From assembly GCA_963764715.1 (NCBI GenBank), contig CAVXTP010000014.1, positions 32,001 through 96,000 of the forward strand: a DNA stretch of 64,000 bases, read 5' to 3'. Shown piece after piece: positions 1,998 through 49,202 of the stretch (within the stretch, counting starts at the first letter, position 1; every line of letters begins with the position of its first letter). A program made the position numbers and the translations under genes. The notes beneath the pieces are model-generated. The model saw only the letters and a program-made list of their open reading frames with translations, ran no database searches and was not told the origin of the DNA. This DNA comes from an uncultured Acidobacteriota bacterium (GTDB lineage: Bacteria > Acidobacteriota > Thermoanaerobaculia > UBA5066 > Gp7-AA6).

Positions 1998-2165
1998 CAT
2001 CCGCTCGCGGCGAGGATAGTCTCCCGAGCGAAGCGAGGGAGGAGGTCCGCGCCGCGGGAGCGAGCGCGCGGCGAGGGATCAGGCGGGCGGTCGAGCCCGC
2101 ATCCGGGCGAGCCGCCCGCCGGTGCGCCGGCACGGCGCAGATCCCTCACCGCGCGCTCGCGACGG
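1998..2165 (+). repeat. Dispersed structured element, copy 1
   Basis: CATCCG...AGTCTCCCGA...GGGAGGAGG...GCGACGG; homologous to 42238, 43634 (minus) and 49040. Confidence 0.85.
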
Positions 2166-2186
2166 GGGTGCTAGCATCTCGCCCGT

Positions 2187-3140
2187 ATGTCGTTCCAGGG
2201 TTCCATCCAGGAGCTCCCGGTCCCCGACATCATCCAGCTCGTCTCGGTCTCGGGGAAGACCGGGATGTTCATGCTCGTCCGGGGATCGGAGCGCGGCTTC
2301 ATCTACCTGCGCAACGGGCGGATCGTGCATGCGGAGCTCGGTCCGCTCACCGGCGAGGAGGCCGTCTACGCCCTGGCGATCTGGTCGACGGGGGACTTCC
2401 AGTTCACGCCCGGCAAGGAAGCCGACACGGTCACGATCGAGAAGACGAACACGTCTCTCCTCATGGAGGCCGCCCGGAGGCTCGACGAGTGGAAGGTCCT
2501 CGCCCGGAAGATCCCGGGCGTCGAGTACGTGCCCGCGCTCAAGGCCCGGGAGGTCGGCGAGCCGATCACCCTCTCGCCGCCGGAATGGAACCTCGTGATG
2601 CACATCGACGGCCGGAAGTCGGTCGAAGACCTCGCGCGCGCGATGCATTCGAACTCCTTCGACACGGCGAAGATCCTCTACGGCCTCGTCACGTCGGACC
2701 TCGTCGAGATGCGCTCCCGCGAAGCCGCGGTGCGCGCCATGGCAACGGCCGCGCCGCCCCCGGCCTTTGCCGCCACCCCGAGCGCGTTTTCCCCGGCGTT
2801 CGCGCCCCGGACGACACCCTCGTCCGGAGCCACCTCGTCCATCGCGTCCATCGCTTCGACCGCGCCGGCGGCCGGCGTTCTCGGCGACGAGAAAAAGATC
2901 CTCATGATCCTCTGCACCCGGGTCAAGCAGGAGGCCGAGACGGCGATCGGCGAGTCGAACCTGCCGGGCCTCGACCGCCCCTACAAGCAGGCCCTCGCCG
3001 AGATCGACCGCGGCCGCGGCGTCGAGGCGGTCCGCGACCTGATCCGCCATACCGAGAAGGCCATCTCCTCCATCCGGGGCCCGGCCATCATGAAAGCGTT
3101 CCAGGACAAGATGTCGCTGGTGATGCAGCCGAAGGTATAG
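2187..3140 (+). CDS. DUF4388 (PatA-N-like) domain protein
   Basis: MSFQGSIQELPVPDIIQLV...GKTG...GFIYLRNGRIVHAE...LLMEAARRLDE, then a wHTH-like segment. Confidence 0.85.
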   Translation: MSFQGSIQELPVPDIIQLVSVSGKTGMFMLVRGSERGFIYLRNGRIVHAELGPLTGEEAVYALAIWSTGDFQFTPGKEADTVTIEKTNTSLLMEAARRLDEWKVLARKIPGVEYVPALKAREVGEPITLSPPEWNLVMHIDGRKSVEDLARAMHSNSFDTAKILYGLVTSDLVEMRSREAAVRAMATAAPPPAFAATPSAFSPAFAPRTTPSSGATSSIASIASTAPAAGVLGDEKKILMILCTRVKQEAETAIGESNLPGLDRPYKQALAEIDRGRGVEAVRDLIRHTEKAISSIRGPAIMKAFQDKMSLVMQPKV

Positions 3141-3240
3141 CCGTCGCCTGCGCTTGCTCGGAGGGCTGCGCCCTTCGGGCGCACCGGGGCGAAAGACCCT
3201 GCGACTGAGGGCGACTGCAAGCCGAAAAGCTCGATTCGCC
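3141..3240 (-). repeat. Dispersed structured element, partial/degenerate copy 5 (3' half)
   Basis: Minus strand reads ...CCGGTGCGCCC-GAA-GGGCGCA...GCGACGG, matching the 3' end of the other copies; begins immediately after the TAG at 3138-3140. Confidence 0.6.
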
Positions 3241-3334
3241 TCGATCGTCCGGCCGACAGCTTCAACTCGGCCCACAGCCGTGAACCCCCGCTACCTGACC
3301 GGAAGGACGGTCCCCTGTACGAGCAGAAGATGTT

Positions 3335-3363
3335 TGGCAATACGGCCTTTTTGGCTTATTATT
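3335..3363 (+). promoter_or_regulatory. Candidate sigma70 promoter for the OmpA gene
   Basis: TTGGCA-17 nt-TATTAT; AGGAG RBS before ATG 3410. Confidence 0.5.
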
Positions 3364-3409
3364 TTCGGCAGCTACGTTCCCCCGTCCGGGTTCGAAAGGA
3401 GACATTTTC

Positions 3410-4813
3410 ATGATGGCGAAGCGGACCGTGCTCCTCGGGATGCTGATCTGCGCCACCAGCGTCGCGGCCTTCGGGCAGCCCGCGGCAATCGCCCCCAACG
3501 TCGGTGGAGACGTGGGACTCTTCACCATGTCGACGGCGGACAACCCCCGCGCCGGACAATTCACTCTTGGCATGTACGCCTGGTACCAGCCGCAGATCGC
3601 CGGGCCGTTCTTCGTGGGTCAGCCGGACGAGTCGCGCTACTTCGCCCAGTACGGCGGCAACGTGTCCCTGGGACTCGGCCTGACCAACTGGTGGTCGGTC
3701 TTCGTCTCCGGAGGCGCACAGGTGACCCGGAGCGAAGGCGGCTGGGACGCGGGCTACGTGAACTCGCTCGGGATCGTCGGCCCGTTCAATGCGTCGGAAG
3801 GCCAGAAGATACGGCTCGGCACGAAGTTCAACTTCCACTCCGAGGCCGATCCCGACTTCCGCATCGCCGGCTGGCTCGCCGGGCACATTCCGATCTCGGA
3901 CCGCGACCCCGTCGCCGGTCCCGGCAGCACGATCGAGGCCGTCAACTCGCCCCGCGCCGACTGGGAATGGGGCGCCGCGGTCTCGAAGTCGTGGTTCACG
4001 GGCATGGTTTCCTACACGATGTCCGGTGGCCAGGACAATCCGCAGGATCCGAACGACACGATCCGCGTGGCCAACCTCCTGAAGTTTGGCGTCGGTGCGA
4101 CGATCCCGGTGGGCACACCGCTCCTCGAGGTCATCATCGAAGCGCTCTACAACGTCTACGACGGCGGCGACTTCCCCCAGAACGACTACGGCCAGTTGAA
4201 CGGCGGCGTCCGCCTCTGGTTCGGCCAATCGGGATGGGCGCTTTCCGGCGCCCTGGGCACGAACCTGTCGATGCTCTTCACCAACGGCACCAGCCAGAAC
4301 CCGTTCGGCGGCGTCCTCGGGGTCACCTACGCGGCCTGGCCGCCGGCCCCCCCGCCGCCGGTCGTCGTCCCCGCGCCCGAGCCGGTCGTCGAGCCGGCCC
4401 CCGTGGTGGCGCCCCCGGTGACGACCACCCAGGCCCCCCCGCCGCCGCCGCGGCCGGCGCCCCGGTCGACCTCGGACGAGATCTTCTTCGACGGCAAGAG
4501 CGCGCGCCTGACGAACATCGCCAAGGCGGTCCTGGACGGCGTGGCCCTCCGGATGAAGAACGACCTGAACTCGACGGCGGTCGTCACCGGCTACACGGAC
4601 AACACCGGCACCGAGCAGGCCAACCTGGAGCTCGGCGCCAAGCGCGCCCAGGCGGCCAAGGACTATCTCGTCACCCGCCACGGCATCGATCCCGCCCGGA
4701 TCTCGACCATGTCCAAGGGATCGGCGGAGCCGGCGTACGACAACGCGACGTCCGACGGAAAGATCAAGAACCGCCGGGCTCAGATTGTGGTAACACTCGT
4801 CTCCGGAACGTGA
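3410..4813 (+). CDS. OmpA family outer membrane protein (beta-barrel, Pro-rich linker, peptidoglycan-binding OmpA_C domain)
   Basis: Signal peptide; C-terminal VTGYTDNTG...NLELGAKRAQAAKDYL...NRRAQI. Confidence 0.92.
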   Translation: MMAKRTVLLGMLICATSVAAFGQPAAIAPNVGGDVGLFTMSTADNPRAGQFTLGMYAWYQPQIAGPFFVGQPDESRYFAQYGGNVSLGLGLTNWWSVFVSGGAQVTRSEGGWDAGYVNSLGIVGPFNASEGQKIRLGTKFNFHSEADPDFRIAGWLAGHIPISDRDPVAGPGSTIEAVNSPRADWEWGAAVSKSWFTGMVSYTMSGGQDNPQDPNDTIRVANLLKFGVGATIPVGTPLLEVIIEALYNVYDGGDFPQNDYGQLNGGVRLWFGQSGWALSGALGTNLSMLFTNGTSQNPFGGVLGVTYAAWPPAPPPPVVVPAPEPVVEPAPVVAPPVTTTQAPPPPPRPAPRSTSDEIFFDGKSARLTNIAKAVLDGVALRMKNDLNSTAVVTGYTDNTGTEQANLELGAKRAQAAKDYLVTRHGIDPARISTMSKGSAEPAYDNATSDGKIKNRRAQIVVTLVSGT

Positions 4814-4844
4814 TCGAGAAGACCCCCGACGGCGCCTCAACACA

Positions 4845-4870
4845 ACCCCCTCCCCCCGAGGGGGTTTTTT
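4845..4870 (+). terminator. Intrinsic terminator after the OmpA gene
   Basis: AACCCCCT-loop-AGGGGGTT followed by a T run. Confidence 0.7.
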
Positions 4871-5993
4871 GACGGCGCGGCCGGGGGTCGATGAGACCCC
4901 TCCCGCCCGCGTCGTCGGTCTGACCGTCGTCACGACGGCCGCGGTCGTCGGCCTGCTCTACTACGGCCAGCCGCTTCTCGTCCCGCTGGCGTTCGCTCTC
5001 TTCCTGTCCTTCGCGCTCCGGCCGTTCGTCTCGCTGCTCGAGCGGGCGGGGTTGCCGCGCGTCGTCGCGATCCTGCTGATCCTCTTCGTCATCACGGGAG
5101 GGCTCGTCCTGCTCGTGATCAACGTCACCGCCCAGATCAACCAGTTCTTCGCCGAGCTGCCCCGGTATCAGAACCGCATTCGCGACCTCCTCGCCGGCGT
5201 GATGGGCATGGTCAACAAGCTCCGGGAACGGATGGGCTCGATCCTCCCGGACGAGGCGCCCGGCGTGCGCGAGGTCAAACTGACCGAGTCGCAGCTCGAG
5301 ACGACGCGGGCCTTCGTGGCGCGGCTCGGAGCCACGGTCGGCATTTTCCTCTACGCCGCGACGATCCCGTTCCTGACGTTCTTCATGCTCAAGGACCGCG
5401 AAAAGTTCAGTCGGGTCCTCGCCGGCATGCTCACGCGCAGCGAGCGGATGGGCGAGTCGGACGTGACGGGGGCGATCTCGCGCACGATGACGGCCTACGC
5501 CCTGGGGCTCTCCTTCGTCATGCTCATCATGGCCGGGGCGACCACGCTCGGGCTCATGCTCCTGCGCATCGACTATTACTACGTCCTCGGGCCGATCGCG
5601 GGTGTCGCGATCCTGCTGCCCTACGTCGGAGTCATCCTGTCGACGGTGCCGGCCGTGGCCGTGGCGTACTTCCAGTACGACGGCGAGAAGGCCCTGCTCG
5701 TCTTCCTCGTCTACACCCTGATGCAGTTCCTCGAGGGCAACGTCCTGACGCCCTTCATCGTCGGCAGCAAGGTCCGCCTCTTTCCGCTGACCGTCATGAT
5801 CGCCTTCATCTTCTGGGGCACGATCTGGGGAATCTCGGGGGCCGTGCTCGCCGTGCCGCTGACCTCGGCGATCAAGGTCGTCTGCGAGCACGTCAGGGGC
5901 TGGGAGGGCATGGCCCGGCTCCTCGGGGAGCCGGACCTCCCCCACTTCAACAAGAAGAAGGGGCGGGAGAAGCCGGCGGAGGCCGCCGGCTAG
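4869..5993 (+). CDS. AI-2E family transporter (start uncertain)
   Basis: Multi-TM; LLPYVG, QFLEGNVLTPFIVG, WGISGAVLAVPLT motifs. Confidence 0.9.
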   Translation: MTARPGVDETPPARVVGLTVVTTAAVVGLLYYGQPLLVPLAFALFLSFALRPFVSLLERAGLPRVVAILLILFVITGGLVLLVINVTAQINQFFAELPRYQNRIRDLLAGVMGMVNKLRERMGSILPDEAPGVREVKLTESQLETTRAFVARLGATVGIFLYAATIPFLTFFMLKDREKFSRVLAGMLTRSERMGESDVTGAISRTMTAYALGLSFVMLIMAGATTLGLMLLRIDYYYVLGPIAGVAILLPYVGVILSTVPAVAVAYFQYDGEKALLVFLVYTLMQFLEGNVLTPFIVGSKVRLFPLTVMIAFIFWGTIWGISGAVLAVPLTSAIKVVCEHVRGWEGMARLLGEPDLPHFNKKKGREKPAEAAG

Positions 5994-6151
5994 AGCTCCC
6001 GTCCAGGGCCGAGCCGCATCTTCGTGTCGCTAGCCGATCGCCGGAACGGCAGGTGCGCGCAGCAGATGCTGGCCAGCAGAACCAGCGCCGCCGCGCGCCC
6101 TGTCATCGGAACCCCCGAAGTCGGGGCGGTCTCGGAACCGCCCCGCCGGCC

Positions 6152-6592
6152 TCACTTTTCCAGTTTGACCTTCAAGCCTTCCGCGGCGATCTTGAGGTTG
6201 GCGCCCTTGGTCTGGCTGGTCAGTACGATCTGGACCTTTTTGGAGTTGATGACGGCCGTCGCGCCCTTGCCTTCCTGAACCGCGATGCCGGCGCTCGCGG
6301 CGCCATAGACGCCGTCGAAGTCCTCGAGGTTCTTCAGGTCGTAGACGTTGCCGGTCGCTTGCGCCTTCGTCACGCCGACTTCGCCGACCGAGAGGCCTTC
6401 GACCTTGAACTTGTACTCCTTGCCCTTGTACGCGAGCGTGCCGTGGCCCCAGCTCCAGCCGATCCCGACGGCGACGGTGCCCTCGGAGAGCTTGACCGTG
6501 GCGTCGGGCTTGCGCCCCTCCGCGCCTCCGGCGAGAGCCGCGAGACAAAAGAGAACGACCGCCGCGATGGAAACGATGGATTTCCGGCTCAT
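6152..6592 (-). CDS. Secreted DUF1134/EipA-like beta protein
   Basis: Signal peptide; VAVGIGWSWGHGTL...FKVEGLSVG...GNVYDLKNLEDFDGVY pattern. Confidence 0.7.
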   Translation of the reverse strand: MSRKSIVSIAAVVLFCLAALAGGAEGRKPDATVKLSEGTVAVGIGWSWGHGTLAYKGKEYKFKVEGLSVGEVGVTKAQATGNVYDLKNLEDFDGVYGAASAGIAVQEGKGATAVINSKKVQIVLTSQTKGANLKIAAEGLKVKLEK

Positions 6593-6633
6593 GGATTCCT
6601 CCTCAACGTTGTTTCGAGTTCTTCGGTTTTTCC

Positions 6634-8211
6634 TCAGTTGCTCGCCGACATCAGGGACTCCAGGGCGTTGTCGAGACTAAAGCTACCAGGCTTCTGGCTC
6701 GGGGGAAATTCCTTGAACGTGCTCAGGAACTGGCCCACGAACTGCTGGGCCGGCACGAGGACGAACGCGTGGTCGACCCGCCACTGCCCGTAATTGATGC
6801 TCTCGTGGTCCGCGGTCTCGAAGGGATCGGAGCGGAGGTTGAAAAGCTTGGGGAAGCGCAGGGCCACGAACGGGTCCTGCCAGACGTCCAGGCCGTGGGC
6901 CCGCTGCTCCGCGAAGACGATCTTCCACTGGTCATAGCGCAGGCCCACGAGCGAGCCATCGTCGTTGAAGTAGAAGAACTCGCGGCGAGGGCTGGGGGAC
7001 TTGCCGGCGAGCGCATCGGTGATGTTGTAACCGTCCAGATGAACCTTGAAGGTCTTGCCGCCGACGTTCATGCCCTTCTTCAGCTGCTCCTTGACGTCCG
7101 GCACGCCGGCCGCCGCGAGGAGGGTGGGCAGCATGTCTTCGTGCGAGAACACGTCGTTCAGGACCGTCCCGGGCTTGATCACCCCCGGCCACCGTATGGC
7201 GCAGGGGACCCGAAACCCGCCCTCCCAGTTGGTGGCCTTCTCGTTGCGGAAAGGAGACGTGCCGCCGTCGGGCCAGGAGAACTTCTCCGCGCCGTTGTCG
7301 GTGGAGTACATGACGATCGTGTTGTCCTCCAGGCCGAGCTCCTTGAGCTTGTCCAGCAGGAGGCCCACGTCGGCGTCGTGCTCGAGCATGCCATCGGGAT
7401 ACACTCCGAGACCGGTCTTGCCCTGCCACTTGGGCGAGAGGTGCGTCCAGATGTGCATGCGCGTCGCGTTCCACCACAGGAAGAACGGCTTGTTCTCCTT
7501 CTTGGACTCGTCCATGAAGCGGAGCGCTTCCCTGGTGAACTCGTCATCCACCGTTTCCATGCGCTTGATGTTGAGAGCTCCGGTGAGCTCGATCTTCTGC
7601 GAGCCGTCCGGGTTCGCCCAGGTATGCAGGACTCCGCGCGTCGCAAATTTCTTTCGCATTTCGGGGTTCTTGAAGTAGTCCGGGTGCTCGGGCTCCTGCT
7701 CGGCATTCAGGTGGTAGAGCGAGCCGTAGAACTCGGCGAAACCGTGCGCGGTCGGTAGGTGCTCGTCGCGATCGCCGAGGTGATTCTTGCCGAACTGACC
7801 GGTCTTGTAGCCTTGAGCCTTGAGCAGCTCGGCGATCGTCACGTCCCGGGCCTGAAGCCCTTCCTTGGCCCCGGGCAGCCCCACCTTGAGGAGGCCGGTC
7901 CGGAAGGGCGATTGCCCGGTGATGAAGGCGGCGCGGCCGGCGGTGCAGCTCTGCTGGCCGTACCAGTCGGTGAACATCGCCCCTTCCTTCGCGATGCGGT
8001 CGATGTTGGGGGTGCGGTACCCCATCTCTCCCTGGTTGTAGGCGCTGAGGTTGTACCAGCCGATGTCGTCTCCCCAGAGAATCAGGATGTTGGGCTTCTT
8101 GCCGGCGGTCTGGGCGCGCGCGGCAACCGATCCGAGGACGAACAGGACGGCGGCGACGGCCACGCGCCGCAGGAGACTCATCGAACGGGACGGGAACCTC
8201 CAGATCATCAC
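6634..8211 (-). CDS. Arylsulfatase (Cys-type formylglycine sulfatase) 1
   Basis: Signal peptide; KPNILILWGDDIG, SCTAGRAAFITG, GKNHLGD, TDNG, WEGGFRVP. Confidence 0.95.
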   Translation of the reverse strand: MMIWRFPSRSMSLLRRVAVAAVLFVLGSVAARAQTAGKKPNILILWGDDIGWYNLSAYNQGEMGYRTPNIDRIAKEGAMFTDWYGQQSCTAGRAAFITGQSPFRTGLLKVGLPGAKEGLQARDVTIAELLKAQGYKTGQFGKNHLGDRDEHLPTAHGFAEFYGSLYHLNAEQEPEHPDYFKNPEMRKKFATRGVLHTWANPDGSQKIELTGALNIKRMETVDDEFTREALRFMDESKKENKPFFLWWNATRMHIWTHLSPKWQGKTGLGVYPDGMLEHDADVGLLLDKLKELGLEDNTIVMYSTDNGAEKFSWPDGGTSPFRNEKATNWEGGFRVPCAIRWPGVIKPGTVLNDVFSHEDMLPTLLAAAGVPDVKEQLKKGMNVGGKTFKVHLDGYNITDALAGKSPSPRREFFYFNDDGSLVGLRYDQWKIVFAEQRAHGLDVWQDPFVALRFPKLFNLRSDPFETADHESINYGQWRVDHAFVLVPAQQFVGQFLSTFKEFPPSQKPGSFSLDNALESLMSASN

Positions 8212-8308
8212 TCCTCCTTTCCGGGTTTCCTGACTTCCCGACAGGCTATGTCATTGCAAGGTCACGAGGAAACTTCGAACTTCGAGCCGCCGCCGCGGCT
8301 CCGACGGT

Positions 8309-10684
8309 TCAGCGCGGCGGCGCCGGCCCCTGCAGCTCTTCGAGAAGCCGCGCCGCCTCCGCGCTCTCCGGAGCGATCGCGACGAGCGCCCTGGCATATT
8401 CGATGGCTCCGCGCCGGTCGCCGGCCCGGAGCGAAAACGATGCCAGAGCCTCGAGGATCTCGCGGTTGGCGGGATGGCGCGCGTGGGCCGCGGCGAGGAC
8501 GGCGATCGCCTTCGGCGTCTGGCCCACCGAATCGAGCGCCACGCCGTAGACGTAGTCGTAGCGGACCCGCTCCGGCGGAAGCTCGGCGGCCTTCCGGAGC
8601 TCCACGAGGGCTTCCGGCATCCGCCTCGCCCGAACGAGGGCCAGGCCGAGCGCGTGGTGCACGCCAGGATCGTTGGGCGCCGCGGCGATGCCCCCGCGCA
8701 ACGTCTTTTCGGCCTCGTCTTCCCGCCCCTGCGCCCGGTAGAGATCCGCGAGGTTCGCCCAGGCTCCGCCGAATGCCGGCGTCAGCGCGATCGCCCTCCG
8801 ATATTCCGCCTCCGCCCGCGCCGGGTCGCCCTGCGCCACCGCGAGGGAACCGAGGTTCAGATGCGCCTCCGCCCGGTCGGCGTCCACGCCCTGGGACTGC
8901 ACGTACTCGGCGAGCGCGGCATCGAACGCCGCCCGTTCGGACGCGGTCATCCCTTCCCGCGGCACCGAGGCCAGCCCCTGGGCGGCCTCGATGCGGACCG
9001 TCCGGACGGGGTCGCGCAGGAGCGGCGAGACCAGGCGAAGCCGCTCGCTCGGCTCGAGCGCGCCCGCGGCCGCGAGGGCCCCGTTCCGGACGAGGGGGTC
9101 CGGGTCCGCCAGCGCCCGCGCGAGGGCCGCGCGCGGCGCCGGAGCGCGGGGGTCGAGCATCGAGGCGGCGGTCGCGCGGCGGATGGCCGGCCGGGCCGCG
9201 TCGCCGACGAAAGCGGCGAGGGCCGCCTGGGCGCCCACGAGCTCCTCGCGCCCGGCGCGCGCGATCTCCCCGTAGTGGGTCTCCTGCCGCACCCGGTCGC
9301 CCCACCACTTCTTCGCCGCGTCGGCGGCCCATTGGTCCGACTTGTCCCGGTGGCACTGCGTGCATGCGTTCGGCGTCCCGAGAGTGAGCGAGAGGTCGGG
9401 CCTCGGGATCCGCAGGCTGTGATCGCGGCGGGCGTGGACGACCATGTAGTTGCGGGTCGGCATGTGGCAGGCCACGCAGCTCGCGCCCGTCGAATTCGCC
9501 TTGTGGAAGTGGTGCTTCGGCGATTCGAACTTCTCGGTCAGGTGGCAGGCCAGGCAGACGCGGTCCGCCGAGCCCTTCACCTTGAGGTCGTGGGCGTCGT
9601 GGCAGTCCGTGCAGGTCACGCCCCCGGCGTACATCTTGCTCTGGAGAAACGAGCCGTACTCGTAGACCTCGTCCTGGATCTGGCCGTCGGCGAAGTAGAG
9701 ACTCTCCTCGAGGAGCGCCGGCCGGTGCGTCTGCAGGATGGGCTCGCCCCAGACGTAGTCCTCCGACACGACCGACCGGCGGGAGTGGCACCGCGCGCAG
9801 GTCTCGACCTCCACGCGCGAAGTCCGGGGGGCGCTCCGCTTCGCGATCCCGGTCTTCATGTCCATGTCCCAGGAGGCCCGGACGGGGTCCTGGAGCGTCA
9901 CGGCCATTCCCTTGTCGGCCGCGTCCTTTCGCGCCCTCCCGGCCTTCACCGCCTCGGCCCAGGCCACGTGGGCGGACCCGGGCCCGTGGCAGGCTTCGCA
10001 GGAGACGTCGAGCTCCGACCAGGTCGTCGCGTAGGAGTTGGTCGCCGCGGAATAGCCCTTCTTCACGTTGGTCGAGTGGCACTCGGAGCACATGAAGTTC
10101 CAGTTCTGGTACGCGCCCGTCCAGTGGAGGGGGTCCCGAAAGGAGACCTCCTCCTTCGGGTAGAGGTGGAACCAGCGCTGGCCCCCCTCCTTCGCCGGCC
10201 GCGCGTCCCAGCAGACGTTCAGCGCCTGGTACCGGCCGCCCGGAAACGCGATGAGGTACTGCTGGAGCGGGTAGACGCCGAAGGTGTAGGCAATCGGGTA
10301 TTCGTGGAGCTTTCCGTCGGGGCCGTCGGTTCGAACGAAGAACTTTCCGTCCCGCTTGAAAAACGTCGACGTCACGCCGAAGTGCGTGAACGAGGCGTGG
10401 TCGAAGTTGCCGAGGACGGTCTCCGGGGTCGCCTCCTCCATCGCGCGGTCGTGGTGCGACCCTTTCCACCGCGCGTCCTCCGCGGCGTGGCAGGGCGCGC
10501 AGGCCTGGCGCCCGACGAAGGTCGCTCCCTGCGACCGCGGGGCCGCGGGCGTCGGCCGGGCGGAGGCCGCGGGCGTCTCGCCCCGGCCCCGGCACGCGAG
10601 GATCGCGGCAACGAGCGTGATCGCCGGGAAGAGGGCCCCGAACCTGCGCCCCGGCCGGTTCCGGAGCGGCGTGGCGGGCTTCAC
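8309..10684 (-). CDS. Octaheme cytochrome c lipoprotein with C-terminal HEAT/TPR repeats
   Basis: Eight CxxCH motifs (CAPCH, CSECH, CEACH, CARCH, CTDCH, CLACH, CVACH, CTQCH); ILAC lipobox; TPR-like AHLNLG/AWANLADLY/HHALGLAL. Confidence 0.9.
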   Translation of the reverse strand: MKPATPLRNRPGRRFGALFPAITLVAAILACRGRGETPAASARPTPAAPRSQGATFVGRQACAPCHAAEDARWKGSHHDRAMEEATPETVLGNFDHASFTHFGVTSTFFKRDGKFFVRTDGPDGKLHEYPIAYTFGVYPLQQYLIAFPGGRYQALNVCWDARPAKEGGQRWFHLYPKEEVSFRDPLHWTGAYQNWNFMCSECHSTNVKKGYSAATNSYATTWSELDVSCEACHGPGSAHVAWAEAVKAGRARKDAADKGMAVTLQDPVRASWDMDMKTGIAKRSAPRTSRVEVETCARCHSRRSVVSEDYVWGEPILQTHRPALLEESLYFADGQIQDEVYEYGSFLQSKMYAGGVTCTDCHDAHDLKVKGSADRVCLACHLTEKFESPKHHFHKANSTGASCVACHMPTRNYMVVHARRDHSLRIPRPDLSLTLGTPNACTQCHRDKSDQWAADAAKKWWGDRVRQETHYGEIARAGREELVGAQAALAAFVGDAARPAIRRATAASMLDPRAPAPRAALARALADPDPLVRNGALAAAGALEPSERLRLVSPLLRDPVRTVRIEAAQGLASVPREGMTASERAAFDAALAEYVQSQGVDADRAEAHLNLGSLAVAQGDPARAEAEYRRAIALTPAFGGAWANLADLYRAQGREDEAEKTLRGGIAAAPNDPGVHHALGLALVRARRMPEALVELRKAAELPPERVRYDYVYGVALDSVGQTPKAIAVLAAAHARHPANREILEALASFSLRAGDRRGAIEYARALVAIAPESAEAARLLEELQGPAPPR

Positions 10685-12129: not shown

Positions 12130-12219
12130 GGATTTCGGCGCCCATGATAACTGCGCGGCGAGTCTTGCCCGAAGCGTCTTGGAAGGGGACTGCGTTCGGA
12201 ACTTCCGGGCGCGGGCTTC

Positions 12220-36104: not shown

Positions 36105-36150
36105 GTAGGGGCGGGGCTTGTCCCCGCCCGGGGCGGCCGCACGGCCGCCC
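36105..36150 (+). repeat. GTAG-family REP element followed by a second hairpin
   Basis: GTAG-GGGCGGGG-CTTGT-CCCCGCCC, then GGGCGGCCG-CA-CGGCCGCCC. Confidence 0.8.
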
Positions 36151-38282: not shown

Positions 38283-38288
38283 GGACCC

Positions 38289-39428: not shown

Positions 39429-39434
39429 CGCGGC

Positions 39435-41045: not shown

Positions 41046-41076
41046 CGGCGGCGGCAGACAGAATAGCATCCCGGGC

Positions 41077-41763: not shown

Positions 41764-41804
41764 AAGTGCTGTGCTACGATGACGACCCCAAAACCGAACT
41801 CAAC

Positions 41805-42170: not shown

Positions 42171-42179
42171 ACCGGCAAA

Positions 42180-42204
42180 GGGCGGGGACAAGCCCCGCCC
42201 CTAC
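42180..42204 (-). repeat. GTAG-family REP element
   Basis: Reverse complement is GTAG-GGGCGGGG-CTTGT-CCCCGCCC, identical to the 36105 copy. Confidence 0.85.
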
Positions 42205-42237
42205 GTACCGGAGCCCCGTTAGAACACCCCTCAGCAA

Positions 42238-42427
42238 CATCCGTTCGCGGCGCGGGAAGTCTCCCGACCGAAGGGAGGGAGGAGGCCCGCGCCGCGGGAG
42301 CGAAGCGCGAAGCGCAGGGTCAGGCCCGCGGTCGAGCGCCGTCCGCGAGCCGCGGGCCGGTGCGACGCCGCGGCGAGCGAAGCGAGCCGCCGGCGGCGCA
42401 GACCCGAAGCGCAGCGCGGAGCGACGG
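42238..42427 (+). repeat. Dispersed structured element, copy 2
   Basis: Same conserved blocks as 1998-2165; ends GCGACGG directly against the stop codon at 42428. Confidence 0.85.
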
Positions 42428-42910
42428 CTAGTCCGGTTTCGCCTGCGTCAGCGTCAGCGTGCTGTAGGAGAACTCGATCGTGGCGGTGACCTCGGTCAGG
42501 GAGCCGGTGCCGGCGGACGAGAACGTGGCCGGCTGGACGTTGGTCAGCTCCCATCGCGCCAGGATCACCTGCTGGTTGTCGCGGGCCACGATCGAGGCAT
42601 TCTTCGAAACCGGATTGTCGTTGGACGTCGCGTCGTTCAGCCAACCCATGAGACGGTTGAGCCCCTTCTGGGTCACGGTGATCGCGAGGCGCCGCTGGTC
42701 CGGCGAGTACGCCGTGTTGAGCTGGCGCGAGTCGGTCTTCAGCTGGGGGTCGTGATTGAACTCGATCCGGTAGCCGATCACTCCCTGGACCTGCGCCCCG
42801 TCGACGATGAACTGAAAGCTGTTCTCGCGCGGATCGCCCCCCGTCTGGGCGGAGAGCAGGGCCGGCGACAGCATCGCCATCGCGAGCAACAGGTGACGAA
42901 ATCGAAGCAT
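42428..42910 (-). CDS. Secreted protein resembling a phage/CIS tail-tube (gp19-like) protein
   Basis: Sec signal (LLSA|Q); FQFIVDG...LMGWL...KNASIVARDNQQVILARWELTNVQP pattern; GGAGG RBS. Confidence 0.6.
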   Translation of the reverse strand: MLRFRHLLLAMAMLSPALLSAQTGGDPRENSFQFIVDGAQVQGVIGYRIEFNHDPQLKTDSRQLNTAYSPDQRRLAITVTQKGLNRLMGWLNDATSNDNPVSKNASIVARDNQQVILARWELTNVQPATFSSAGTGSLTEVTATIEFSYSTLTLTQAKPD

Positions 42911-43077
42911 CGTGCCTCCAAAAAATGAGGCCCCAGCCTAGCATGGGGCCGGCGGATTCGCGGGAGACCCGGACGCAGGAACTACGGAGCTCGGGGCGAG
43001 CTCGTCGCTCGTTCCCGGAACGCGGACGGCGAGGGCCCGTTCGTCGTTTGCCGGTAGAATCGCCGGGGAGGGACAGC

Positions 43078-43632
43078 GTGACGCCCGACGACATCGCCCC
43101 CGAGTTCCGCTCCCAACCCAAGGACTACGCGAAGGCGGCCCCGATCGACGGGGTCCGGACGCTCCGCCTCACCCGCTTCACCGACGACCGCGGATTCTTC
43201 CTCGAGATCTTCCGTTCGAAAGCGAACCATCCCGGCAGCCGCGAGCTCGCGGAGTTCTTCGCCGGCGTGCCGGTCGCCCAGATGAACTACTCGATCGTCG
43301 ACGCCGAAGGCCACATCAAGGGGCTTCACTACCACCTCAAGCAGGACGACATCTGGTTCGTGCCGCCCCCGTCGAAGGCCAAGTTCGTGCTCTTCGACGT
43401 CCGCGAGCGCTCGTCCACGTTCGGAAAGACCCAGGTCATCGTGGCCGGCGGCGGGCAGGACGTCCTGGTCCGAATTCCCGCCGGCGTGGCCCACGGCTAC
43501 CGTCCGCTGACGAACCCGTGCGCTCTCCTCTACTTCGTGACGGAGACCTTCGACCCGGCGGCGCCGGACGAGCTGCGGATCCCCTGGGACCACCCGGCCG
43601 TCAAGGACCTCTGGGCGGTCCCGAACGGATAA
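43078..43632 (+). CDS. dTDP-4-dehydrorhamnose 3,5-epimerase family (RmlC-like cupin)
   Basis: DDRGFFLE, QMNYS, GLHYH, DVRERSSTFG, IPAGVAHGY, IPWDHP. Confidence 0.9.
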   Translation: MTPDDIAPEFRSQPKDYAKAAPIDGVRTLRLTRFTDDRGFFLEIFRSKANHPGSRELAEFFAGVPVAQMNYSIVDAEGHIKGLHYHLKQDDIWFVPPPSKAKFVLFDVRERSSTFGKTQVIVAGGGQDVLVRIPAGVAHGYRPLTNPCALLYFVTETFDPAAPDELRIPWDHPAVKDLWAVPNG

Positions 43633-43633
43633 A

Positions 43634-43788
43634 CCGTCGCTCGCGCTTCGCTCGGGGTCTCGCTGCGCGACCGGTGGGCGGCTCGCCAAATGGGGCTCGA
43701 CCGCCCACCTGACCCCTCGCTTCGCGCTCGCTCCCGCGGCGCGGACCTCCTCCCTCCCTTCGGTCGGGAGACTATCCGCGCCGCGAGC
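43634..43788 (-). repeat. Dispersed structured element, copy 4
   Basis: Reverse complement matches copies 1-3; starts 1 nt after the TAA at 43630-43632. Confidence 0.85.
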
Positions 43789-43818
43789 TTGAGGGACTTC
43801 TCCTCTCGACGAGGTTCG

Positions 43819-44319
43819 TCAGGCTGAGGTGCTCGCCGCGAGCTTTTCCATCGCGTCTTCCGGGAGCGTGTAGCGCACCCAGTCGGGCTGGGGACCCGCG
43901 CCGATGCGGCGGTAGAAGCGCATCGCGTTCACGTTCCAGTCGAGGACGGCCCAGTCGATCCGGAGGACCTTGCGGCGCACTCCCTCGCGGGCGAGCGCGA
44001 CCATGAGCGCCTCCCCCACGCCGCCGGAGCGGTCGGTCTGCGCGACCACGAGGTCCTCGAGGAACAGGAAGGGCCGGGCGCGGAACGAGGAGCCGAGGCC
44101 CTCCCAGAAGATCGCCATGCCTTCGATCCGCCCGCCGCGCTCGGCGACGAGGGCCTCGATCTTCTTCTCGTCGAAAATCATCGCGCCGAGCCGGGCCGCC
44201 TCGGCGTCGTCGGGCAGAGGCAGCTTCTCGAACGCCGCGAGCTCGCGGTCGAGCTCGACCATGCGCGGCCAGTCCTCCCGGCGCGCGGGCCGGACCGAAA
44301 CCGGGTCCGGCGAGGTCAC
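43819..44319 (-). CDS. GNAT N-acetyltransferase (SSAT-like)
   Basis: ELAAFEKL, FLEDLVV, RSGGVGEALM, WAVLDWNVNAMRFY. Confidence 0.92.
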   Translation of the reverse strand: MTSPDPVSVRPARREDWPRMVELDRELAAFEKLPLPDDAEAARLGAMIFDEKKIEALVAERGGRIEGMAIFWEGLGSSFRARPFLFLEDLVVAQTDRSGGVGEALMVALAREGVRRKVLRIDWAVLDWNVNAMRFYRRIGAGPQPDWVRYTLPEDAMEKLAASTSA

Positions 44320-44843
44320 TTCGCCGCCGCGACCTGGGCGAAGTCGACGTACGAAAGGAGCTTCAACGCCGCGTCCCGGTCGATGTTCGCTCCCTGGGCG
44401 AGCACCAGGCGCGAGGGCAGCACCACGACCGTGACGAGCGTCGTCGGGTTGCCGCTCGAGCGGTCGGTCACGGCGAACGCCTTCTTGCCGGCGATCGTCG
44501 TCTCCTTCGTCTCGACGCTGCCGACCTTGGCGGACTCCGCGACGGCCTTCCGGATCTCGGGCTCGAGGTCCTTCTCCTTGCCGTAGTCCTGGACGACCAG
44601 GCGGAACTGCCGCGTCACGGTCGGCCCCTCGATGCGCTGGTAGAAGCGCGAAACCTCGGTGAAGACCCCCATGTCGTTCTCGTCGGTGTCGGGCAGAGGG
44701 TCGCGGGGCGCCGCCTCCCAGCCCGGGATCTGGGCCGGCAGTCCGTTGCGAAGCGATCCCGGCCAGGCCGTCGGCGCCTTCTCCTGCGCCGCGAGCGCCG
44801 AGGCGAGCGCGAGGCCGAGGACGGCGGCGGAAAGCGTGCGCAT
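44316..44843 (-). CDS. Hypothetical secreted protein
   Basis: MRTLSAAVLG signal peptide; stop overlaps the GNAT start. Confidence 0.7.
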   Translation of the reverse strand: MRTLSAAVLGLALASALAAQEKAPTAWPGSLRNGLPAQIPGWEAAPRDPLPDTDENDMGVFTEVSRFYQRIEGPTVTRQFRLVVQDYGKEKDLEPEIRKAVAESAKVGSVETKETTIAGKKAFAVTDRSSGNPTTLVTVVVLPSRLVLAQGANIDRDAALKLLSYVDFAQVAAAK

Positions 44844-44897
44844 TGCGAAAAGGATAGCGCAATCGTTGTTAAACTCGGGAGAGTCGCCGTCAACTCC

Positions 44898-46418
44898 ATG
44901 GACGAGCTCGAGCGCGCGCGCATTCGCGTGTATCGCAACGACCCTGCCGGGCGGGGCGAGCGGCTCGTCGCCACCGATCCCCCGCGCTTCGTGGACGAAG
45001 GCGCATGGGCTTTCCGCGTCGAGGGACGCGCTCCGGACCCGAAGCCTTACCCTCCCGACACCGCCGAGTTTCTCCACTGGCAGCTCTCTTCGGCTCTCGA
45101 GCGCGGCAAGCGGCTGTGGCAGGGGCTCCGGCCGGGCGGCCGCTGGGTGCCGGGCGCGGTGCTTCCGGCAGTTCCGGCCGCGGGCGACGACCTCAACGCC
45201 TACTACGACCGCCGCGCGCTGCGCTTCTTCCGCACCCGGGACGCGCGGACCGGCGCCGTCGTCCAGTCGGGCGACAGCGTCGACGTCGCCGCGCACGAGC
45301 AGGGGCATGCGGTCCTCGACGCGCTGCGGCCGGACCTCTGGGACGCGCCGCACTTCGAGGTCGCCGCGTTCCACGAGGCCTTCGGCGACCTCGCCGCGAT
45401 CTTCGTGGCCCTCGCCGAGCCACCGCTCGCCTCGCGCGTCGTCGAGGAGACCGGCGGCGACCCGGCGCGCTCGAATCTCGTCTCGCGACTGGCCGAGGAG
45501 CTCGGCGGCGCGGTGCGCGACCGCTACGGCGAGGACGCGGCGATGCCCCGGTCGCTCCGCGACGCGGCCAACGACTTCCGCTACGCCGACCCGAAGACGC
45601 TGCCCGACGCGGCGCCGGCGTCCGAGCTTTCGGCCGAGCCCCATTCCTTCTGCAACGTGATGACGGGCGCCGGCTGGGACCTCCTCGTCGCGCTCTTCCG
45701 CGCCGAGCCGGAACGCGACCGCGTCGGGGCCCTGCGCAACGCGGCCGCCGCGCTCGCCCGGCTCGCCGTCGCGGCGGCGGAGGCGGCGCCCTCCGGCGCC
45801 GACTTCTTCGGCCGCGTGGCGCGCCGCCTCGTCCGCTCGGCGCGGGACGCCGGTGACGCCTCCGCCCCGGAGCTCGCGCGAGCGCTCGTGGCGCGCGGGC
45901 TCCTGTCGACCTCCGACGTCGGCGACGAGCTCGCGCCGGACGCGGACCGCGCCCTCTTCCTTCCGGACGACGGCGGGCCGATGCCGCCGCCGCTTCGCGC
46001 GGCGATCGAAGCGAGGCTGCCTCCGGCGCGGGGCGGCGAGATCGTCACCCTCGCGTCCCGGGGCCCGGAACGCCCGCCCCTTCTTCGCGGGCGACGCCGC
46101 CGCGACCTCGTGCTGCGCGGCAGCGAGTTCGGCCCCGCCGACGGCGCCGCCGTCGAGCTGTCGGATTCCTTCGCCCTGGCGTTCGAAGGCTCCGGCGTGC
46201 TGCGCGCGTCGCGCTTTCATCCGGCGTCCGACCGCGATGCCGACGACGCTCGCGCCTTCGTGCGGTTCCTCGCGCGCCGACGCGCGATCGCCGACGAGAC
46301 CGAGGGCCGCGCCGCGACCCGGCGGCTCGCAAGCGAGGGGAAGTCCCACGCCGTGGTCCGGGAAGAAGACGGGATCCGCCGCCTGCGTCGCGTGTGGATC
46401 GCGAAGGAGGAACGATGA
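44898..46418 (+). CDS. M4/M36 (thermolysin/fungalysin-like) zinc metallopeptidase, no signal peptide
   Basis: LNAYY, VAAHEQGHAV (HExxH), FHEAFGD (ExxxD), EPH. Confidence 0.85.
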   Translation: MDELERARIRVYRNDPAGRGERLVATDPPRFVDEGAWAFRVEGRAPDPKPYPPDTAEFLHWQLSSALERGKRLWQGLRPGGRWVPGAVLPAVPAAGDDLNAYYDRRALRFFRTRDARTGAVVQSGDSVDVAAHEQGHAVLDALRPDLWDAPHFEVAAFHEAFGDLAAIFVALAEPPLASRVVEETGGDPARSNLVSRLAEELGGAVRDRYGEDAAMPRSLRDAANDFRYADPKTLPDAAPASELSAEPHSFCNVMTGAGWDLLVALFRAEPERDRVGALRNAAAALARLAVAAAEAAPSGADFFGRVARRLVRSARDAGDASAPELARALVARGLLSTSDVGDELAPDADRALFLPDDGGPMPPPLRAAIEARLPPARGGEIVTLASRGPERPPLLRGRRRRDLVLRGSEFGPADGAAVELSDSFALAFEGSGVLRASRFHPASDRDADDARAFVRFLARRRAIADETEGRAATRRLASEGKSHAVVREEDGIRRLRRVWIAKEER

Positions 46419-47020
46419 GGATGAGGAAGCAACTGCTCGCCGCGGCCGCCGTCCTGGCGTCCGCGCGCTGCGCGTCGGCGCCGACCGCCGCGACCGCTCC
46501 GGCGCCCGAGCCCGTGACGCCGGCCGACTTCGTCGCGTCGATCGCCGACGTCGCCGCCGGCCGCAACGCCGCCATGGCCGAGGCCGGCCTCGTGCTGGCG
46601 AAGGTCGAGTTCCGCCTCGCCGTCGGCACCGAGACGAAAGGCGGCGGGAAGATCGAGGTCCTGGTGCTCGACGCCGAGGCGGCCCGGCGAACCGAGACGT
46701 CCTTCCTCCAGGAGCTCACGCTCGAGATCCCGGCGTCCGGACGGCGTGGCGCGGCGCCGCGGCCGCTCGTTCCGGGCGTGCGCGAGTTCGTCGAGGCCGC
46801 GATGAACACGGCGCGGGACCTCGCGCGGGCGACGGCGGAGGCCGGCCTGCCTCAGCGCCTGCGGTCGGTCGAGCTGACGGCGAAGATCACGCGGTCGCGC
46901 ACGCTCTCGGGCGGAATCGCCGCGACGATCCCGGCCTGGGTCAAGCCCTCGGTCGGCGCCGAGCTCGGGCGGACCGCCGAGGAGGAGAACACGGTCCGGA
47001 TGGTCTTCGAGGCGCGCTGA
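46415..47020 (+). CDS. Lipoprotein-like protein with two Trypco2-like domains
   Basis: ATGA overlap with the peptidase stop; signal ending in Cys; two repeats of helix + VE(F/L)xxx...GGx(K/I)...(L/V)xL strand pattern. Confidence 0.6.
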   Translation: MRMRKQLLAAAAVLASARCASAPTAATAPAPEPVTPADFVASIADVAAGRNAAMAEAGLVLAKVEFRLAVGTETKGGGKIEVLVLDAEAARRTETSFLQELTLEIPASGRRGAAPRPLVPGVREFVEAAMNTARDLARATAEAGLPQRLRSVELTAKITRSRTLSGGIAATIPAWVKPSVGAELGRTAEEENTVRMVFEAR

Positions 47021-47038
47021 CGCGGCCGCTCCCGGGCC

Positions 47039-47075
47039 AAAAAAAAGCGGCCCCTTGCGGGACCGCTTCTTTCTC
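47039..47075. terminator. Bidirectional intrinsic terminator
   Basis: A8-GCGG..loop..CCGC-TTCTTT between convergent genes. Confidence 0.75.
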
Positions 47076-47092
47076 TCCCCGGGAGAAACGAA

Positions 47093-47392
47093 CTACTTCT
47101 TCACTCCGAGGATGGCGTCCTTCGCCTTCTTCGAAACGCGGAACTTCACCACCCGCTTGGCAGGAATCTTGATCTCTTCGCCCGTGGCCGGGTTGCGGCC
47201 CATGCGCGCCTTCCGATTCACGAGAACGAGCTTGCCGACGCCGGGGATCGTGAAGCTGTTCTTCGCTTCCTTGTAGGCGAGCGCCGTCAGGTCGTCGAGG
47301 AACTGCGTCGCAACCCGCTTCGTGGTGCCCGTGGACTTGGAAAGATGATCGGCGATGGAGGACTTCGAAAGCGCCTTGGAGTCTTTGGCCAT
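47093..47392 (-). CDS. HU family DNA-binding protein
   Basis: IPGVGKL...RKARMGRNPATGEEIKIPAKRVVKFRVSK; true start MAKDSK at 47392. Confidence 0.96.
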   Translation of the reverse strand: MAKDSKALSKSSIADHLSKSTGTTKRVATQFLDDLTALAYKEAKNSFTIPGVGKLVLVNRKARMGRNPATGEEIKIPAKRVVKFRVSKKAKDAILGVKK

Positions 47393-47566
47393 ATGCACTA
47401 CCCCTTTTCTCTGTGGAATCGCCCCTTCGGGGCGTATCAAACTGGGGCCGTATTCTAGTCCCCCCGGCGCGACGTGAAGCAAGAAAAATTCGCGCCCGCC
47501 TGCGAAAAACCATTGGCCGACTCTTTCGCCGCATCGCGCGCCGGACGATGTAAGATCCGGCGTCCG

Positions 47567-49024
47567 ATGATTCGCGCCCTCGATCGGGACCCCGGAACCG
47601 TCGGCCGCGGACGATCGGAAACACGACGAGCGATCGCGACGGCCGCCGTCTGCCTCGCGCTCCTCGGCACATCCGGATGCGAAGGCGGCTCCGCCGCGAT
47701 AGGCGGGCGCATCCTCGAGCGTTACCGCAAGGTCTCCGGGGCCAAGCCTTTGCCGGCCGGCGGGATGATCCGGATCCGCCTCGCCCGTCCGGCCGGCGAG
47801 CCGGGCGAGCCCGGCCGCGAAGAGGTGCTCTGGGAGCCGTTTCGGTATCGCGACACGGTGTCGTCGGCCGGGCTGACGACGGTCCTGGGGATCGAGTCGG
47901 CACGCGCGTTCTTCGTCGACGGCGACGGCGTCACGCGCGTCGCCTCCGAGCCGGTGCTCCGCGACCTGCTGACCCGCTCCTATTTCTGGCGGCGCGCCTG
48001 GCTGTTCCGCGATCGGGAGAAGGCGCTCCTGCACCTCGGGCCGGCGGAGGCCGACGCGGTCTCGATCCGGCTCGAGGTCCTCGGCGGAAACACCCTGACC
48101 CTGTCGTTCTCGGGAAAGGACGGACGGCTCCTTTCGGCCCGCGCTCCCCGCTTCCACCTCGAGTTCCAGTCCCCGGAGCGGTTCCGCGACCTCTCCGACC
48201 CAAAGCGCCCGTTCGAGGGCGAGATCGCCTGGACGGGCCTGCCGACCGGCCGCATGCCGAGCCCCGAGGTCGGCGGGGGGCGGGCGCGGTTCGCGCAGCC
48301 GTCGTCGCAACTCCCCTACGTGCGCGCCGGCGGGGCCCTCGTGGTGGATGCCCGCATCTCCGGCGTCCCGGTCCGTCTCGCGATCGACGCCGCCGCCGAC
48401 GGGCCGATCGTCCTGTCCCCCGCCCTCGCGGCGCGACTCCCCCTGAAGTTCACGACCGACGTGTTCGGACGGCGGCTCGCCCCCGGGGCGACGCTCGAGG
48501 CCGGGGCGGCCTCGTGGCCCTCCCTCTTCGCGCAGGTCGACGACTCGGTGCCGTCCGGCGCCGACGCCGTGGCCGGGGCCTGCCTGTTCCGCGAGACGGT
48601 CGTCGAGCTCGATCCCGTCGCGCGCCGCCTCGGGCTCCACGACCCGGCGGCCTGGGTGGCGCCGGACGGCTTCGTCCGGATCGTGATCGACGACGACAAC
48701 GACCGCCCCGTCGCCACGCTCCGGAACGGCTCCGAGGACTTGCGGCTGACGGCCCCGAGCGACGCCGGCGGCGCGGCCATCGAGCTTTCGGCGGCGAGCG
48801 CCGCGCGGACTGGGCTCGCGGGGGCCCCCGAGGCGGCGGGGCTCAAGTGGGGACCGCTCCGTCTCCCGGCCCTGCGCCTCGCCACCTCGTCTCGCGCGTT
48901 CGCCCCCGACTGGGGCGACGACGGGCGCCTCGGGTTCCCGATCTTCGAGCGCTGCCACGCCTTCATCGACATGCCCCAGCGCTGGTCGTACCTGAAGCCG
49001 TTGGATGAGGCGACCGCTCCTTAG
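47567..49024 (+). CDS. Hypothetical lipoprotein with degenerate retropepsin-like (aspartyl protease) domains
   Basis: LLGTSGC lipobox; LVVDARISG...RLAIDAAA, C-terminal DGRLGFPIF...FIDMP; catalytic DTG is absent. Start uncertain. Confidence 0.6.
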   Translation: MIRALDRDPGTVGRGRSETRRAIATAAVCLALLGTSGCEGGSAAIGGRILERYRKVSGAKPLPAGGMIRIRLARPAGEPGEPGREEVLWEPFRYRDTVSSAGLTTVLGIESARAFFVDGDGVTRVASEPVLRDLLTRSYFWRRAWLFRDREKALLHLGPAEADAVSIRLEVLGGNTLTLSFSGKDGRLLSARAPRFHLEFQSPERFRDLSDPKRPFEGEIAWTGLPTGRMPSPEVGGGRARFAQPSSQLPYVRAGGALVVDARISGVPVRLAIDAAADGPIVLSPALAARLPLKFTTDVFGRRLAPGATLEAGAASWPSLFAQVDDSVPSGADAVAGACLFRETVVELDPVARRLGLHDPAAWVAPDGFVRIVIDDDNDRPVATLRNGSEDLRLTAPSDAGGAAIELSAASAARTGLAGAPEAAGLKWGPLRLPALRLATSSRAFAPDWGDDGRLGFPIFERCHAFIDMPQRWSYLKPLDEATAP

Positions 49025-49039
49025 CGCGTCCTTCCGAAA

Positions 49040-49202
49040 CATCCGTTCGCGGCGCGAATAGTCTCCCGACCGGAGGGAGGGAGGAGGTTCGCGCCGCGGG
49101 AGCGAGAGTGCGGCGAGGGACCAGGGGCGCGGTCGAGCCCACAGGCGAGCCGCGACCCGGTGCGCCCGCAGGGCGCAGGTCCCGCGCAAGCTCGAGCGAC
49201 GG
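49040..49202 (+). repeat. Dispersed structured element, copy 3
   Basis: Same conserved blocks; ends GCGACGG directly against the stop at 49203. Confidence 0.85.

Follow-up and report, generated by a model that had tools for sequence, protein, structure and literature searches.

The window analysed here, a 64,000-nucleotide (nt) stretch of an uncultured Acidobacteriota genome (G000:C14:32001-96000), contains several copies of a structured repeat, ~170-200 nt long, which is on balance best explained as a mobile or recombinogenic element that folds as a single strand, is non-autonomous and is mobilised in trans. It would belong with repetitive extragenic palindromes (REPs) and miniature inverted-repeat transposable elements (MITEs) in kind but is larger and modular. 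Its fold is strand-specific, its copies swap modules, its short derivatives keep the termini only, and the family comes and goes among relatives. The source genome, G000 (4.36 Mb in 26 contigs, 70% G+C, 96.8% complete), carries 39 full or near-full copies and a few fragments, as found by nhmmer with a profile from the four full copies of the window. The element contains no open reading frame (ORF), none of the 39 copies adjoins a transposase gene, and all six orthologous loci examined vary in presence and absence, in agreement with the initial annotation of this stretch, which had described a dispersed, non-autonomous element.

The four full copies and the partial one listed in that annotation are all found where it had placed them, and every stem and loop that it quoted is legible in the sequence. 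Scored with a covariance model built on the RNAalifold structure (43 pairs) of an alignment of 36 copies, the full copies reach E = 3e-22 or better and the partial one 0.005; the family far exceeds the window. The copies in the window and one hairpin of a separate family are:

1995-2172, + strand: full copy 1 (E = 3.2e-26), placed at 1998-2165 in the initial annotation
3134-3308, - strand: partial, divergent copy 5 (E = 0.0048; nhmmer model positions 121-170)
42180-42204, + strand: REP hairpin with a GTAG head, from a separate family and located upstream of copy 2
42235-42434, + strand: full copy 2 (E = 3e-22), with an extra insertion of ~25 nt in the last hairpin
43627-43796, - strand: full copy 3 (E = 1.4e-28), with convergent genes on either side
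49037-49209, + strand: full copy 4 (E = 2.4e-29)

The element spans 173 model positions with 43-46 pairs, seven to eight helices and two branch points, including a three-way junction, and is, as had been argued from the first copies, more complex than a classical REP. Read along the fold strand, it starts with an optional leader of ~25 nt, present in about half of the copies and partly repeating the first stem arm. Hairpin 1 is long and has an invariant purine-rich arm; a long-range stem consists of GCGA-type repeats with G-A opposite A-G mismatches; and a junction stem, GGGGTC/GACCCC, encloses two hairpins. The third stem holds an invariant internal loop, in which a bulged C lies beside tandem G-A/A-G, and tandem G-A opposite A-G recurs beside the junction stem; these motifs, like the mismatches of the long-range stem, were read directly from the alignment, and the internal loops with GA facing GA that the initial annotation had reported are thereby recovered. 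The terminus, GCGACG(G), is a CGTC tag when read on the other strand and is invariant or nearly so in the 36 copies.

Divergence of the primary sequence with retention of pairing, first proposed from a handful of copies, holds across the alignment, in which long invariant blocks alternate with variable, mutually complementary ones. In total, 97.3% of cells pair, compared with 36-51% after a shift of the partners by 1-3 columns. Both sides have changed in 16 of the 43 pairs (115 cells against 29.4 in shuffles, and none of 500 shuffles attains any of five measures); the covarying cells are not independent events, as the copies are related and exchange modules. A possible terminal closing stem is weaker, with 76.7% of cells paired. 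The fold of copy 4 has an energy z-score of -5.25 as DNA and -5.42 as RNA, and none of 200 dinucleotide-preserving shuffles folds as well.

The paired cells of the 36 copies include 192 G·T but 12 A·C combinations, an excess which assigns the fold to the strand written in the initial annotation. This strand is more stable than its complement in all 36 copies with both energy sets (RNA, -107.6 vs -97.6 kcal/mol; DNA, -62.1 vs -58.0). Six G·T wobbles are conserved, one of them in all 36 copies and four others in 32-34. Minimum-energy folds of the same copies under RNA parameters contain 111 hairpin loops; 54 are triloops, 47 of these GNA, with 46 of the GNA loops closed by C-G, and only 2 of the 34 tetraloops are GNRA, so the GNA triloops singled out earlier are indeed prominent. 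C-GNA-G minihairpins are especially stable in DNA. The bulged-C and tandem G-A motifs and the GCGA-type stem are stable in DNA and RNA alike; the conserved wobbles lean to RNA, while the loops and the genomic context lean to DNA. Relative to the gene whose stop it adjoins, the fold strand is antisense, and in 10 of 39 copies it is antisense to both neighbours. Antisense position and GNA triloops together fit a single-stranded DNA (ssDNA) form better than a read-through RNA, and with the strand specificity of the fold they make an ssDNA intermediate the more likely active form. The earlier proposal of an ssDNA-folding substrate of an HUH or REP-associated tyrosine transposase (RAYT) enzyme is plausible in its first half, whereas the link to a RAYT finds no support.

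The tagged terminus is usually placed on stop codons, with single-nucleotide precision. In the window, the end GCGACGG of copy 4 (49196-49202) adjoins TTA (49203-49205), the TAA stop of a 42-aa minus-strand ORF (49203-49331), and the left-hand gene terminates with TAG at 49022-49024. The same end of copy 2 (42421-42427) adjoins CTA (42428-42430), the TAG stop of a minus-strand gene (42428-42910). On the + strand, the terminus of copy 3 (43634-43640) begins one base past the TAA stop (43630-43632) of a dTDP-sugar epimerase-like gene (43078-43632), and that of copy 5 (3141-3147), in which, besides the tagged terminus, the last hairpin and some of the core survive, follows immediately after the TAG stop (3138-3140) of a DUF4388 gene. 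Copy 1, between ruvC (end 1967) and the DUF4388 gene (start 2187), is among the five copies located between genes co-directional with the fold strand, and its 3' end touches no stop codon. According to Pfam, these and other neighbours are ordinary genes (ruvC, PilZ, GNAT, sugar epimerase).

Across the genome, 21 of 39 copies have an opposite-strand gene that ends -17 to +16 nt from the terminus (0-3 nt in 17 cases), and the 42-aa ORF at copy 4 raises the number of stop-adjoining copies to 22. A stop triplet stands 0-1 nt before the heptamer CCGTCGC in 23 of 36 cases inside copies, as opposed to 93 of 4133 elsewhere (p = 3e-28). The 22 adjoining stops are TAA in 9 cases, TAG in 10 and TGA in 3, against a genome usage of 7.7%, 32.5% and 59.8%, respectively, in 2429 long ORFs (chi-square p = 2e-9); this preference, TAA over TAG over TGA, suggests recognition of T-R-R beside the terminus. 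Outside the genus, 26 copies from 12 genomes were inspected, and 11 of them share this geometry (TAA 6, TAG 2, TGA 3). The 39 copies lie between convergent genes (21), between genes both antisense (10) or both sense (5) to the fold strand, or between divergent genes (1), with two unclear, and a gene end faces the tagged terminus in 32 of the 38 copies that have a called right neighbour. Two copies adjoin start codons and some flanks are non-stop; one terminus lies a few bases from the 3' end of a tRNA gene, with the same geometry as at stops:

G000 C21:252775-253246: copy at tRNA-Gln(CTG), the tRNA at 77-150 of that stretch

That the element generally supplies the stop codon was ruled out, as protein ends and native stops are retained at four loci; some copies do provide it, e.g., C3:22481 and one copy in genome G019, with ORFs extending 5-7 codons into the repeat.

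Comparison with genomes of the same genus at six loci revealed polymorphism at each of them, the comparison that the initial annotation had proposed as a test of mobility. Empty sites are 4-30 nt spacers between two stop codons. The loci are:

Copy 2 locus: filled or empty, or with a reversed copy on the stop of the other gene; G012 carries a head-to-head pair
Copy 3 locus: full in G000, G041 and G023; a 24-nt termini-only form in G013; empty in six genomes
Copy 4 locus: present in G000, G023 and G017; a short form with the two termini only in G041; other repeats or 9-30 nt spacers in the others
C21:149166 locus: occupied in G023, G041 and G013 and also in G006, a more distant genome; empty in G017, which has a 4-nt spacer between the stops
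C24:62301 locus: carried by G000, G041 and G023; missing from G013, which has a 14-nt spacer, and from G017
C10:25514 locus: full in G000, G041 and G023; hairpin 1 only in G017; absent in G013 and G006

At the copy 2 locus the element has been inserted in either orientation depending on the lineage, always with the tagged end on a stop, and G013 has a different palindrome there, headed by GGGGTCAG. Whether or not the element is present, the adjoining protein keeps its length at the copy 2, copy 3, C24:62301 and C21:149166 loci. When orthologous copies are compared among G000, G041 and G023, the differences comprise entire self-complementary modules (hairpin 1 in one case, the core in the other), which implies that much of the covariation is carried by module exchange. 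The median pairwise identity among G000 copies is 0.72, with 1 of 630 pairs above 0.95; these copies are old or well mixed. Termini-only forms were considered as an abundant family of their own in G000, but few candidates were found. In relatives, the repeat unit of tandem arrays comprises the element and 8-110 nt of flank, which identifies the arrays as local duplications.

The favoured explanation is that the element moves via an ssDNA form of its fold strand. An enzyme acting in trans would recognise the shape of this strand, i.e., the conserved wobbles, the bulged-C and tandem G-A loop and the GNA triloops, and the element would land beside T-R-R triplets, preferably TAA; since T-R-R at other positions falls within genes, insertions would survive at stop codons only. 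The triplet might, speculatively, be read through wobble-tolerant pairing with a guide borne by the element. The resident Y1/HUH enzymes are at most conceivable candidates for the mobilising activity. Given reports of ribosome stalling by REPs, some effect on adjoining genes is likely whatever the origin of the element; an effect on expression, like that of stop-proximal REPs, would be secondary.

Several observations weigh against this explanation. No mobilising gene was found for the element; in G000, no IS110 recombinase (PF01548), TnpB or reverse transcriptase (PF00078) is present. Target-site duplications, TA or 3-nt ones included, were not seen at the junctions, the six filled/empty comparisons among them, and the terminal inverted repeats (TIRs) are weak, with ~8 nt in common. 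Elements of the IS200/IS605 type that move as ssDNA show a replication-strand bias, according to Ton-Hoang et al. (2012; PMC3333891), but the fold strand of the element is the G-rich one in 19-21 of 39 copies, a weak test in a draft assembly of low skew. The identities among copies do not support recent transposition within G000. Presence and absence may equally stem from deletion, and covariation from module exchange or palindrome correction rather than selection. Conservation of the full length over eight genera exceeds what recognition of the termini alone would need, the six conserved G·T wobbles lower DNA stability and are more at home in RNA, and the gene calls, made from ORF length and G+C by codon position, are crude.

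REPs and their composites (BIMEs, REPINs) are among the closest known repeats. Like them, the element is high-copy, intergenic and palindromic, and mostly lies downstream of genes or between convergent genes; many E. coli REPs are reported to lie within 15 nt of a stop codon (PMC12306157). Its stems contain conserved irregularities, as do the REPs described for TnpA-REP by Ton-Hoang et al. (2012; PMC3333891). The CGTC tag at one end recalls the CGTC REPs, which have no associated transposase and form head-to-head dimers according to Di Nocera et al. (2013; PMC3733652), and head-to-head pairs of the element occur in relatives. The published CGTC REPs have stems of 8-9 bp starting with A-T and a CCA tail, both of which the element lacks. 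By contrast to a REP, which is one hairpin of 20-40 nt, the element measures ~170-200 nt with four helices and a three-way junction, does not flank a RAYT gene, has its junction exactly on the stop codon and folds on the antisense strand. It thus shares with REPs a tetranucleotide tag and a high-copy, extragenic, gene-downstream distribution, and departs from them in not being a single 20-40 nt palindrome and in not flanking a RAYT.

Other families offer partial likenesses. TIRtrons combine TIRYT-type Y1 transposases with TIR families headed by GGGGWSAS, and a group from Acidobacteria is named by Di Nocera et al. (PMC3733652). The junction GGGGTCAGG...GACCCC of the element resembles this motif, and the GGGGTCAG-headed TIR families of G000 are likewise found on stops in relatives; the motif of the element, however, is internal rather than terminal, the rest of its sequence is unrelated, no TIRYT gene is flanked by it and the two co-occur imperfectly. 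The MITEs of IS200/IS605 (PATEs) share a strand-specific folded DNA, the lack of a visible target duplication and, possibly, insertion beside a short specific sequence. The element differs from them in having no cognate TnpA/TnpB and no replication-strand bias, and its target triplet is degenerate, being T-R-R (TAA 9, TAG 10, TGA 3 of 22) beside some non-stop flanks, and is found at the opposite side of the fold strand. A DDE-type MITE was rejected, as the termini match over ~8 nt only and no duplication is seen at the six filled/empty comparisons; IS110 bridge-RNA ends and a retron msr-msd were dismissed for want of a DEDD recombinase and a reverse transcriptase in G000.

Correia/NEMIS, ERIC, BOX, RUP and MIRU repeats are 100-200 nt long, modular, foldable and inserted at gene boundaries, and MIRUs overlap the flanking stop and start codons. 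By their general description, the element resembles them in size, modularity, foldability and gene-boundary insertion; it lacks the TA duplication of Correia elements, and its G+C-rich multi-stem fold with GNA triloops sets it apart from Correia, ERIC, BOX, RUP and MIRU repeats.

Of the other explanations, the one in which a Y1/HUH tyrosine transposase (RAYT or TIRYT) from another site in the genome acts on the element, binding the folded strand and cutting and joining it at the tagged terminus, is possible but improbable. Five Y1_Tnp matches in G000 represent one RAYT, three TIRYT-type genes and a truncated one:

C17:16536-16853: short RAYT gene with GTAG REPs on both sides, a classical REPtron (region C17:16300-17200)
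C6:495252-496278, C7:33418-34449 and C4:21072-29595: TIRYT-type Y1 genes (~320 aa) and the truncated one

The HUH and Tyr motifs are intact in the RAYT and in the three TIRYT-type genes. The central junction GGGGTCAGG...GACCCC fits both the GGGGWSAS heads of TIRYT TIRs, as given in PMC3733652, and the heads of the three TIR families of G000, but the match covers only ~9 nt and is the sole hint towards Y1 enzymes. Binding of REPs by TnpA-REP requires a stem mismatch, according to PMC3333891, and the element has conserved stem irregularities on a strand-specific fold in which GNA triloops predominate. A GTAG-headed REP lies upstream of 15 of the 39 copies (copy 2 included), in one orientation only and at 29-42 nt in 14 of the 15. 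Yet the Y1 genes carry flanking repeats of their own, GTAG REPs at the RAYT and, at each TIRYT-type gene, a separate GGGGTCAG-headed, AT-rich-armed TIR family (76, 34 and 18 heads), and the C7-type palindrome occupies stop codons in G013 and G002 where G000 has the 170-nt element. In G000, several kb or more separate every copy from the Y1 genes, and the covariance model found nothing above noise at the five loci (best E = 0.056); copies flanking an HUH, RAYT, TnpA or IS110 gene, which the initial annotation had suggested looking for, were thus not found. The distributions also diverge: Y1 matches occur in 49 of 56 genomes of the element's own taxonomic family, 33 of 57 of a third family and 3 of 7 of a sister family, as opposed to 55 of 56, 2 of 57 and 7 of 7 for the element. 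Three genomes, G019, G043 and G005, have 20-22 or more copies each and no Y1 match; for G019, a two-contig genome of 97% completeness, the number is at least 22. The missing replication-strand bias also speaks against a Y1/HUH substrate, as does the position of the stop triplet, 3' of the last hairpin of the fold strand. In IS608, the target lies 5' of the left end. An RNA as the functional form, i.e., a structured 3'-untranslated-region or terminator module, or a self-promoted antisense RNA reaching into the 3' end of the adjoining gene, spread by unrelated mobility and kept by selection, is unlikely. It would account for the conserved G·U-type wobbles, for the retention of sequence and structure over eight genera and for the RNA fold energy (z = -5.4), and 21 of 39 copies lie between convergent genes, where both strands are possibly transcribed. 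Position just past stops also fits, as E. coli REPs within 15 nt are reported (PMC12306157) to stall ribosomes and reduce translation. The better-folding strand, however, is antisense to the adjoining gene in 32 of 38 copies and to both neighbours in 10 of 39; inspection by eye found no U-run after the structure on either strand and no sigma-70-like promoter in the leader; the loops are GNA triloops rather than GNRA or UNCG tetraloops; Rfam gives no match at the gathering score; and turnover between close relatives at six of six loci means that no locus depends on its copy. A sigma-54-like GGCAC-N5-TGC found in some leaders was set aside, as its -12 part is not conserved.

Quite unlikely, in turn, is a new class of element moved by an enzyme that is neither a RAYT nor an IS200-type transposase, possibly a host function, in which the element's own folded DNA would read T-R-R by wobble-tolerant pairing; in a genome of 70% G+C, such reading would turn stop codons, and the one tRNA end, into landing sites. 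Very improbable is an attC-like site, folded as ssDNA and put at secondary sites by an integron integrase. attC sites fold as single strands and are located at gene ends, and the G|TTA junction resembles the crossover point of a core site. G000 contains an integron integrase gene with small cassettes (C17:9551-12300), and one cassette boundary holds a short palindrome resembling the terminus of the element. That integrase gene, however, is split over three frames (190, 35 and 137 bits), and no copy lies in the adjacent array. IntI is distributed unlike the element (35 of 56 genomes in its own family, 41 of 57 in the third, 7 of 7 in the sister family), no paired inverse-core and core sites were found at the ends, where the terminal stem pairs in 76.7% of cells, and the genes adjoining the element are conserved chromosomal ones, present with or without it. 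The cassettes are small, lower in G+C and reverse-oriented, with a recurring short motif between them; over the order, integrase matches exceed the model's cut-off in 76 of 121 genomes.

The element is confined to a narrow clade. The covariance model detects it in 55 of 56 genomes from eight genera of its own family, in all seven genomes of the sister family, with weaker scores, and in 2 of 57 genomes of the third family. Those two were not accepted as true carriers: their matches lie on short contigs of incomplete bins with 2-4% contamination and are probably mis-binned. No genome among the 149 from the rest of the phylum has the element, and the plasmid and phage collections searched gave no match. 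The tallies include unpublished genomes: G047 is counted both in the element's own family and in the phylum search, and G030 in the sister family; in the match table of G047, many matches cover ~106 nt only, so a shorter derivative seems abundant there. Rfam has no match at gathering score in the window, placing the element outside its known families at that score, one of the checks proposed at the outset; the four copies searched at E up to 1 returned one spurious long non-coding RNA (E = 0.099). No such element from Acidobacteria is described in the literature searched by title and abstract opening; the additional files of Di Nocera et al. (2013) might list Acidobacteria repeats.

REPs with a CGTC tag are not known to have a mobilising enzyme (PMC3733652). 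For the questions of how REP-like repeats come to be placed, and why they are so frequently positioned right after stops, the family described here offers an unusually sharp data set: a stop junction exact to the nucleotide, TAA favoured over TGA, a strand-specific antisense fold, filled, empty and terminus-only sites in close relatives, and a narrow clade in which to find the responsible gene. If the ssDNA interpretation is true, the element provides a natural substrate with which to find a new recombinase that reads DNA shape; if the RNA interpretation is true, Acidobacteriota possess a large RNA family that has gone unannotated. In both cases, copies should be masked or annotated, since antisense ORFs cross them and some gene ends read into them.

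Other repeats and genes were observed at the loci studied. The GTAG REP family has at least 132 strict-pattern copies genome-wide, often as inverted pairs, and also occurs near window position 36109. The 42-aa ORF beside copy 4 (49203-49331, - strand) encodes two CxxC pairs, is zinc-ribbon-like with no Pfam match, and is conserved at this position in other genomes of the genus; in G013, its frame extends into a short form of the element. In G022 and G003, the convergent gap at this locus is occupied by a further hairpin repeat, made up of a purine-rich stem and then a G+C hairpin, and in G094 and G006 a similar GGGAGAGGG hairpin flanks copies of the element. Beside the REP at the C21:149166 locus, a stretch (~5600-5660 of C21:143600-150300) resembles a reversed tRNA T-arm plus 3' part. 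In G044, copies spaced at 2.8 kb were considered as transposase-linked but proved to accompany tandem Ser/Thr-kinase paralogues: C215:1-9705 holds three kinase genes with PD40 propellers (853-869 aa), each followed by one copy of the element, and gene and repeat were duplicated jointly.

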